Source: a virus
IMG/VR virus record: IMGVR_UViG_3300017774_005745
Location: 1-64,000 of that record
DNA length: 64,000 bases
Strand: one strand, 5' to 3'
The notes under the pieces were generated by a model. That model was not told where the DNA came from. It saw only the letters and a program-made list of their open reading frames with translations, and did not search any database. Within the stretch, counting starts at the first letter, position 1. Each line of letters starts with the position of its first letter. Of the stretch, positions 915 to 2,560 are shown one piece after another. The position numbers were made by a program, and so were the translations under genes.

Positions 915-1145
915 TCACTCTTGAATGCCCATCGACTTCAAAAGACAGCGCCTGTGATAGGCTACCTCTTTCGTTTTGTTGAGGTCATCCTCGACGTAGT
1001 AGAACGGGAGGATGAACCCAGAGTCGGTTTCTCCGACGGGCATCTCGCACGCAATGCACATCTCTCCGACAGGTGTCTCTACGAGCTCCTTGTCGGAGAG
1101 AGGTCCTGATGCCGGTTTCTTGTGGAGAGATCCAAACACCTTCAT
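915..1145 (-). CDS. small Zn-finger protein (CxxC...HxxC)
   Basis: C30-IA-C33 and H64-RR-C67; ATGA overlap with the upstream ORF. Confidence 0.65.
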   Translation of the reverse strand: MKVFGSLHKKPASGPLSDKELVETPVGEMCIACEMPVGETDSGFILPFYYVEDDLNKTKEVAYHRRCLLKSMGIQE

Positions 1146-2044
1146 GCTACTCTCCGAATAGGGATGACATCGGCGAGTTTGGTGTTGTCGAGGTTCGTCG
1201 GGTCTCCCCGCAAGAGCTGTCCATTCGCGAGGGTGATGTTGGCGTGCCTTCGAAGAGCGTCTTCGGCCGTTTCAATCATCAACTTCTGAACGAGCATTGC
1301 ATCACCTGCAGGAACACCGTTCGGCTGAACGCAGAGTCTCTCAAGGATGAACCCATCCTTGTCGACCACCTTGAGATTTCCGTGAGTACCTTCGTCGATT
1401 CGATACCTTCTCCCAGATGGAGCCTTGACGAAGAAGTACCTGTGCTTCTCCAGGTTGTCTCTCTGCTCTGCGTTGAGGCAGCTCTTCAAGAGTTCGAGAG
1501 CACGGTCGTATGCCTCTCGTTTGACTCGTGCTGCCTCTGCCATGCGAGCTTCGTACTCTCGTTGTTCTTTCTGAGCCCGTTCGTACTGCTCCAGTCGGAA
1601 ACGTTTCTCTTCTTCAGTCTCGACCACTTCGAAACCTACAATACGTCCGTAGGGATCTTGGGCGATTCTAGTACGTGGGCTTCCGTGTCTGCTGGGGTTG
1701 TCTGTGAACTCATTCCACAACGACCAGGTCGTGCTAGAGGTTGTTATGGTTGGAGTGTGGAGGTTATTCCAATGCTCCCAACCGACATCACAGGTTGTTG
1801 CCGAGTTGGAGGTCCAGATACGCCAAACGGTTCCTCCTCCAGTCACCGTATTTGTGATGATTCTCGTCTCCAGAGGGTCCCAGGTATTCATGGTTACTGG
1901 AGGAGGGAGGTGGATGACTTCGACAGGCTCCTCCCTCACCGCCTTGAGTTTTCTGGCTCCCTTCGTCCTCTTGTCCTTCTCGGATTGAGCCAGTCTCTCT
2001 TTGATGCTTGGTTTGAACCTCTCAGCAAGAGAGTTCCTACTCAT
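1142..2044 (-). CDS. hypothetical protein with Thr/Trp-rich N-region, coiled coil and a Cys-containing C-terminal domain (possibly E2-like)
   Basis: 300-aa ORF with SD GGAGG. C-terminal THGNLKVVDKDG...RLC(238)VQP...GDAMLVQKLMIE; directly downstream of the GG-ending gene. Confidence 0.7.
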   Translation of the reverse strand: MSRNSLAERFKPSIKERLAQSEKDKRTKGARKLKAVREEPVEVIHLPPPVTMNTWDPLETRIITNTVTGGGTVWRIWTSNSATTCDVGWEHWNNLHTPTITTSSTTWSLWNEFTDNPSRHGSPRTRIAQDPYGRIVGFEVVETEEEKRFRLEQYERAQKEQREYEARMAEAARVKREAYDRALELLKSCLNAEQRDNLEKHRYFFVKAPSGRRYRIDEGTHGNLKVVDKDGFILERLCVQPNGVPAGDAMLVQKLMIETAEDALRRHANITLANGQLLRGDPTNLDNTKLADVIPIRRVA

Positions 2045-2045
2045 G

Positions 2046-2294
2046 TCACCCTCCGACGATGGGCGGGGTCATGATGATCTTCTCCAAGGACGGATCGAAC
2101 TTGTGGACGATCTCTCCCTGGTTTCCCTTCTTGTCCACCGTGAACGCGATGTAGCCCTTCTTCTTGAGGTCATCGAACTGCTTCTTGGCTGCTTCGACCT
2201 CGACTTCGCTCTTCGAGTCCCACATGAACTTCGAGTCGCCCGTGTGATTCATCACGGAGAGCGTGTTCTTTACTTCTGCAGTCGTGAGTTCCAT
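2046..2294 (-). CDS. putative ubiquitin-like (beta-grasp) protein with C-terminal Gly-Gly
   Basis: 82 aa ending IIMTPPIVGG-stop (compare MoaD/ThiS ...PPVSGG). Inferred strand-strand-helix-strand-strand-strand pattern. Confidence 0.6.
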   Translation of the reverse strand: MELTTAEVKNTLSVMNHTGDSKFMWDSKSEVEVEAAKKQFDDLKKKGYIAFTVDKKGNQGEIVHKFDPSLEKIIMTPPIVGG

Positions 2295-2302
2295 GTATCT
2301 CC

Positions 2303-2560
2303 TTAGACGTGGTTTGGGTGCCAGCTTCTGACTTCGTTGAGCTGCTCATAGATGCTCATCTTCATGGAGTACACCTCCATGATGCGTTGCATGTTCTTGA
2401 AGTTGTATTCCTTCATCTTTACTTCGATGTCTTCTCCTTCTTTGACTTCGACTGGGTAATCTTCGTAGTCAAAGTCGTCACAGACTACTAAGAGGTGAGA
2501 GCATCCATTCTTCTGTGCTGCTCTGACCCACTCTTCGATTTCCTCTGCGGACGCGGCCAT
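2303..2560 (-). CDS. acidic hypothetical protein
   Basis: Start moved to ATG 2560, which has SD GAGGAG. Core HLLVVCDDFDYEDYPVEV. Confidence 0.75.
   Translation of the reverse strand: MAASAEEIEEWVRAAQKNGCSHLLVVCDDFDYEDYPVEVKEGEDIEVKMKEYNFKNMQRIMEVYSMKMSIYEQLNEVRSWHPNHV

Follow-up and report, generated by a model that had tools for sequence, protein, structure and literature searches.

Could a phage carry its own machinery for tagging proteins, built on a ubiquitin-like (Ubl) modifier and reduced to two genes? Bacterial Ubl conjugation has so far been described as host defence (CBASS Cap2, Bil) or as presumed defence (Bub). The question is raised by three tightly coupled minus-strand genes in a window of 64,000 bases, the opening stretch (bases 1-64,000) of a phage genome that is complete at 196,807 bp and bounded by direct terminal repeats. 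An original prediction, made from the letters of this window, had read the three genes as a Ubl with a Gly-Gly end, a Cys-bearing E2-like partner and a Zn finger. Our analysis supports a narrower model, in which the first two genes, here called the tag and the partner, are best explained as a minimal ubiquitin-like conjugation module, the whole of whose chemistry we infer.

The locus and its third gene

All three open reading frames were confirmed at the positions in Table 1, and the residue numbering given earlier for the partner (H221-G-N223 and C238) is correct. The tag ORF ends in PPIVGG-stop and has a good AAGGAG ribosome-binding site; the partner's ATG lies 1 nt past the tag's stop codon, and the third gene overlaps the partner's stop (ATGA). 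The tag/partner locus has a ribonucleotide reductase gene on one side and, on the other, past the genome end, a DNA ligase gene. Searches of Pfam, PHROGs and NCBIfam returned no real match for the tag, the partner or the third gene, and there was no PDB sequence-profile match for the proteins searched.

Table 1. Positions of the tag, the partner, their key residues and the adjacent third gene in the 64,000-base window
Feature	Position	Strand	Basis
Tag gene, 82-aa ubiquitin-like protein (divergent beta-grasp by prediction), unannotated family	2046..2294	(-)	AlphaFold2, structural matches, 2,213 clusters
Tag C-terminal Gly81-Gly82, free end without propeptide	2049..2054	(-)	GG conservation, codon spread
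Partner gene, 300 aa: basic N-terminus, Thr/Trp-rich segment, long charged helix, C-terminal cysteine domain	1142..2044	(-)	
Partner cysteine domain, ~100 residues (about 175-272)	1229..1522	(-)	AlphaFold2; after tag in 43/43 loci
Cys238, candidate nucleophile	1331..1333	(-)	57/57 distinct partners
Asp248, candidate catalytic acid	1301..1303	(-)	Asp 56, Glu 1 of 57
Asn269, candidate oxyanion or structural residue	1238..1240	(-)	53/57
Thr/Trp-rich, Lys-poor segment containing WxxW; putative role in target binding or assembly	1706..1891	(-)	Composition, motif counts
Third gene, 76 aa, possible Zn ligands C30, C33, H64, C67; lineage-specific neighbour	915..1145	(-)	

The third gene is a bystander and lies outside the module. 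The CxxC and HxxC motifs first noticed in it are present (C30-x2-C33 and H64-x2-C67), and they supply four possible Zn ligands, where a RING has eight. Its homologs occur only in the source phage's own lineage group, one of 41, with no further homologs in IMG/VR, and across the 41 groups only the tag and the partner recur widely, opposite-strand shadows aside. On its ligand number and its presence in a single lineage group we rejected the Zn finger as an E3 and dropped it as the third component of the original prediction. Immediately upstream of the tag lies a gene for an acidic protein of 85 aa (2303-2560, minus strand); it has no family match and is likewise conserved only within the source phage's own lineage group (1/41). 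In three lineage groups an AAA ATPase gene lies near the pair (L005:5991-7529, L011, L013).

Glycine end and cysteine partner

The AlphaFold2 model of the tag (mean pLDDT 82.6) has the element order strand-strand-helix-strand-strand-strand, which is that of a beta-grasp. Three structure searches returned mostly beta-grasp domains, including protein L and G, Raf RBD, PB1, Ufm1, SUMO, ISG15 and MoaD, albeit as weak matches (best Z 5.3-5.6 across the searches; the strongest reached Z 5.6, with an rmsd of 3.3 A over 60 residues). The model thus points to a divergent beta-grasp protein that is not closely related to ubiquitin. The by-eye alignment to ubiquitin that had been proposed for the tag holds as a resemblance of predicted fold and fails at the level of sequence, where neither Pfam nor PDB sequence profiles detect a likeness to ubiquitin.

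A profile of the tag family, built from eight close relatives, retrieved 2,213 clusters at 50% identity. Among the best 150 of these relatives, 136 end in GG and four in another xG, eight carry one or two residues after GG, one carries 34, and one is a two-domain protein that lacks the tail. Glycine occupies the homologous terminal position in 140 of the 150, and G82 is invariant across 137 tag sequences. The best-150 list is biased toward GG, since the profile scores the tail; in an unbiased set collected with a DNA pattern from the first hairpin, all eight intact, complete tag genes end in GG. By comparison, only 3 of the 243 ORFs in the source genome are GG-ended, and the GG end of the tag is far above chance.

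In the source phage the GG codons overlap the partner's ribosome-binding site, GGAGG, which would offer a trivial origin for the doublet. We rejected this artefact as the main cause: all four Gly codons are in use at both terminal positions, the GGAG/GAGG core was found in only 19 of 47 cases in the ribosome-binding-site check, and GG is kept where the next gene has its own ribosome-binding site or where the partner sits further off. Three loci whose tags run on past GG were checked and retain a Cys partner, so either trimming or tolerance must be assumed for extended tags. At one locus (L056:6001-6372) a Cys codon stands at the tag's stop position and opens a 34-residue extension after GG; it is seen in several contigs, and an intact partner follows. 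At another (L118:6235-6462) similarity to the tag ends after the helix, with neither GG nor a partner in the available sequence, and this is likely a decayed copy. A search for longer proteins yielded one unrelated fusion only, which argues weakly against tags fused to a partner or an E1, and we set that arrangement aside.

The partner's cysteine domain follows the tag within 1.4 kb in all 43 distinct loci with enough sequence. The reverse search, for which the DNA pattern came from the helix after the Cys and contains neither the Cys nor the Ubl, found the Cys in 12 of 12 viral loci and a tag in all ten loci with upstream sequence (nine ending GG, one AG; two loci are identical). C238 is invariant across 57 distinct domains, position 248 is Asp in 56 of them and Glu in one, and Asn stands at 269 in 53. 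In duplicated pairs the glycine end and the Cys are both retained (L010, L098). Beta-grasp order, glycine end, cysteine and co-occurrence, on which the original prediction had hung, therefore all stand for the tag and the partner.

AlphaFold2 predicts a confident cysteine domain (pLDDT 96) made of two helices, four strands, two further helices and one strand, with the Cys ending strand 4. It has no match in Pfam, PDB sequence profiles or PADLOC. Upstream of it the source partner has a long charged helix and, further toward the N-terminus, a Thr/Trp-rich, Lys-poor segment. A WxxW motif lies upstream of the cysteine domain in 23 of 32 partners, whereas only 8 of 422 background segments contain one, and the composition of this arm departs from background by 5.6x for Trp, 2.5x for Thr and 0.25x for Lys. 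We suggest that it may bind targets or serve in assembly.

Two cultured jumbo phages extend the pattern. A Foldseek search of predicted viral structures matched the partner to a 397-aa protein of Agrobacterium phage Atu_ph07 (AUZ95012; E 1.9e-3, TM 0.60), and 4 nt upstream of its gene lies that of AUZ95013, a protein of 117 aa that ends in FAGG. A subsequent sequence search showed that Sinorhizobium phage Phosso carries the pair too (Atu_ph07, MF403008.1 181237-182788, locus L087:7238-8789; Phosso, PV764938.1 250650-252259, locus L088:4004-5613, genes 346 and 345). Both tags are 117 aa long with a central insertion, and the partners are about 400 aa long with a different N-terminal region. In profile alignments (E 1.7e-4 and 4e-4) the first hairpins of these tags fall on that of the source tag, and the Cys, Asp and Asn of the partners on C238, D248 and N269. 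The GG tail, the Cys, the Asp and the gene order thus persist at about 16-21% identity, and these copies make a metagenomic pattern directly testable. A terminal Gly and a single Cys that are invariant together usually point to acyl transfer. Since both are conserved in linked proteins down to about 20% identity, acyl transfer from the tag's tail to the partner's Cys is the best explanation of the pattern.

The pair is mostly phage-borne and occurs with very different hosts. It was found in 3 of 401 planctomycete genomes, in two of them among housekeeping-like genes; a close-pattern search of GTDB returned nothing, and a broader pattern returned one genome. Two planctomycete pairs (L121 and L122; G061:C8 near 80,700 and G026:C233 near 19,000) lie near TPR, M20 peptidase, FG-GAP, CCA-adding and NUDIX genes. 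None of the genes scanned around them was a phage gene, and the two pairs are possibly cases of cellular adoption.

The partner as a candidate E2 and the source of an activator

The identity of the partner as an E2 is not established, and the fold data neither confirm nor exclude an E2-like fold. The order of its predicted elements is compatible with an E2-like layout: like a canonical UBC domain (Pfam UQ_con; UbcH5c), it would have a helix, a four-stranded sheet, a Cys after the sheet and then helices, and it has a conserved Cys, Asp and Asn. Unlike canonical E2s, it has no conserved HPN. The HGN that had been equated with this motif did not survive comparison across the family, as H221 is present in only 6 of 57 partner domains, Gly stands at the Pro position, and N223, kept in 43 of 57, lies 15 residues before the Cys rather than 8.

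Profile searches, moreover, detected no homology to E2s. Against a shallow profile of 11 planctomycete HPN-type E2s the partner profile scored 12.4, at the level of block shuffles (mean 12.2, maximum 16.7), and the comparison left the cysteines unaligned. Pfam E2 families matched none of 32 partner members. Superposition on UbcH5c (PDB 1x23) gave a background-level Z of 2.5, with an rmsd of 5.7 A over 95 residues, and a Foldseek search of the partner model against the PDB returned nothing at E 0.001. The model included the long N-terminal helix, which swamped the wide structure search and makes missing E2 or RWD matches there uninformative. Over the whole domain, the partner was matched best by phage P1 DarA, in its penton-binding domain (Z 4.3, with 71 residues superposed at an rmsd of 3.4 A), and this Z lies within the background for that search.

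A free carboxylate requires ATP-dependent activation, and an enzyme from elsewhere is therefore needed to charge the tag. The earlier remark that the window holds neither an E1 nor a JAB gene extends to the complete 196,807-bp genome, in which ThiF and Prok-JAB searches were empty while their controls were positive. ThiF is absent from 9 of 11 pair-carrying phage records, the source genome included, and 565 kb of DNA flanking the pairs contains no E1 or JAB relative. Of 14 control prokaryote genomes, 11 have ThiF-family genes above the cut-off, so a host activator would usually be available. In two phages, Rctr197k and LR756511, a ThiF gene and a JAB-like one lie about 60 kb away from the pair. 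Within each of them these two genes lie a few kb apart (LR756511, Rctr197k; L094:5617-7542, L095:4757-8672), with no GG-ended ORF among their listed neighbours, and they could serve the pair.

Proposed chemistry, rival readings and related systems

We envision a pathway in which the tag passes through a Cys238 thioester to a target after being charged by a host E1-like enzyme, a proposal that we rate at nearly even likelihood. The tag's C-terminus would be adenylated by an outside enzyme, most simply a host ThiF/MoeB-family E1-like protein, and the tag would then move to Cys238 as a thioester. Acting as a combined E2/E3, the partner would discharge it onto a target amine with the assistance of Asp248 and Asn269, while the Thr/Trp-rich arm and the long helix would choose or reach that target. 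Tagging would take place within infected cells rather than in the virion, in keeping with the lack of the Atu_ph07 pair among the virion proteins of that phage. By analogy, the pathway would work like an E2-only pathway such as Bil, with the partner only a candidate E2. Several observations weigh against a tagging function: no activator is encoded, E2 homology and a conserved HPN are lacking, and 9 of 150 tags have residues after GG. E1 enzymes, moreover, are usually specific for their own Ubl, yet the pair spans very different hosts.

Counter-defence would put the same parts to another use. The tag could act as a decoy that host E1 enzymes of Bil, Bub or CBASS take as substrate, and the partner's Cys could drain or hydrolyse activated Ubls or, in the manner of a Cys-x-His/Asp peptidase, cleave Ubl conjugates, which would spare phage proteins from being tagged. 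A mostly phage-borne pair without its own E1 is what such a trap would look like, tags extended past GG fit a partner capable of trimming, and the His found at Cys+2 in 44 of 57 domains could form a hydrolase site with the conserved Asp; Bil systems, furthermore, tag phage tail proteins (PMC11601596). We nevertheless consider counter-defence unlikely, as the Cys+2 residue is Gln in the source phage and non-catalytic in others, the tag's structural matches place it nearer protein L and Raf RBD than bacterial BilA-type Ubls, two planctomycete genomes have copies with housekeeping-like neighbours, and no anti-defence neighbours recur by the pair across the 41 lineage groups. If true, it would mean counter-defence against Ubl-based immunity. 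A sulfur relay seems improbable to us. The tag would, like ThiS, MoaD or TtuB, acquire a C-terminal thiocarboxylate through host ThiF/MoeB, and the partner's Cys would form a persulfide or acyl-disulfide to thiolate a nucleic acid or cofactor. A small beta-grasp with a free GG end also defines the sulfur carriers, on which host ThiF/MoeB enzymes naturally act, and MoaD, TtuB and a ThiS-like protein are among the tag's structural matches (Z 3.4-3.9). But no sulfur-using enzyme recurs by the pair, only two genes recurring across the 41 lineage groups, and no E1-like or sulfur-accepting enzyme is linked to it; the tag has instead an obligate Cys partner of another family, with no rhodanese match and no recognisable nucleotide-binding motif.

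The pair might also form a non-covalent complex that serves as a scaffold, for example as a capsid-internal protein. The GG tail would then be seated in a pocket on the partner, whose Cys would be structural or metal-binding. The DarA match would suit this role, as would a structural use of the Thr/Trp-rich arm and long helix. That match is within the search background, though, and the pair in the source phage lies beside genes for ribonucleotide reductase and DNA ligase. The Atu_ph07 proteins (gp230 and gp231, as counted from annotated neighbours) are absent from the 131 virion proteins of that phage (PMC6102473 Table S5). The joint invariance described above, with its usual meaning of acyl transfer, also speaks against a merely structural Cys, and we hold the non-covalent complex to be rather improbable. 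Finally, the partner could be a ligase in its own right, attaching the tag to targets either through transpeptidation of extended precursors or through a yet undescribed form of activation of the free carboxylate. Most carriers do lack an E1, and the minority of tags with residues after GG would have possible leaving groups. This we think very improbable, given that 136 of the 150 best tag relatives, like the source tag, end exactly at GG with no leaving group, and that a domain of ~100 residues without a recognisable nucleotide-binding motif would have to do the work.

The known conjugation systems closest to the proposed thioester pathway are Bil and Bub, which, like CBASS Cap2, are host systems with their own E1 (PMC11601596, PMC11601603). 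Bil is a bacterial defence operon of BilA (Ubl), BilB (E2), BilC (JAB) and BilD (E1) (PMC11601596, PMC11601603). Like the pair, it sets a beta-grasp protein that ends in Gly beside a Cys protein and has no E3, so that the Cys protein would pick the target; unlike Bil, the pair is mostly phage-borne, has neither E1 nor JAB, and matches nothing in PADLOC or Pfam. Bub (6E/DUF6527) operons, which use Tyr and Ser oxyesters and encode an E1 and a peptidase (PMC11601596), likewise combine a diverged Ubl with an E2-like pathway, and their Ubl and E2 genes are adjacent or fused, whereas the pair has an invariant Cys, separate genes and no E1, JAB or DUF6527. We class the pair, by its inferred chemistry, as a Ubl conjugation variant that belongs to none of Bil, Bub or the E2 family. 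No published description of it was found in the literature searched, in which coverage of subscription papers was thin.

A phage-side module so common (2,213 clusters) and so small would, if the tagging model is correct, show viruses using the same chemistry as their hosts' defences, and it would call for an account of how a Gly-Gly tag comes to be activated when it has no E1 of its own. In its broadest form the idea is that thousands of phage lineages have their own two-gene protein ligase, a Ubl tag with a cysteine transferase that has at most a remote relationship to E2 enzymes, which hijacks host ThiF/MoeB or is E1-free and tags host proteins during infection. We offer this tentatively, as possible and on balance doubtful.

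Several phages carry more than one copy of a component. In one, two pairs occur (L010:4932-8073); the second, whose tag is 121 aa long and ends in RSGG, has diverged far from the first in both tag and partner. Tandem pairs are found at L098:3969-5622, where the first tag has a mid-gene in-frame stop and is either broken or recoded. A 436-kb phage has a single tag and three partners (L107:1337-4584), two of them following the tag and the third lying on the opposite strand. Rctr197k (genes 113, 112 and 110; L054:5815-8986) has a two-domain tag ending in PG together with two partner paralogues, and these genes are flanked by two annotated CRISPR arrays.
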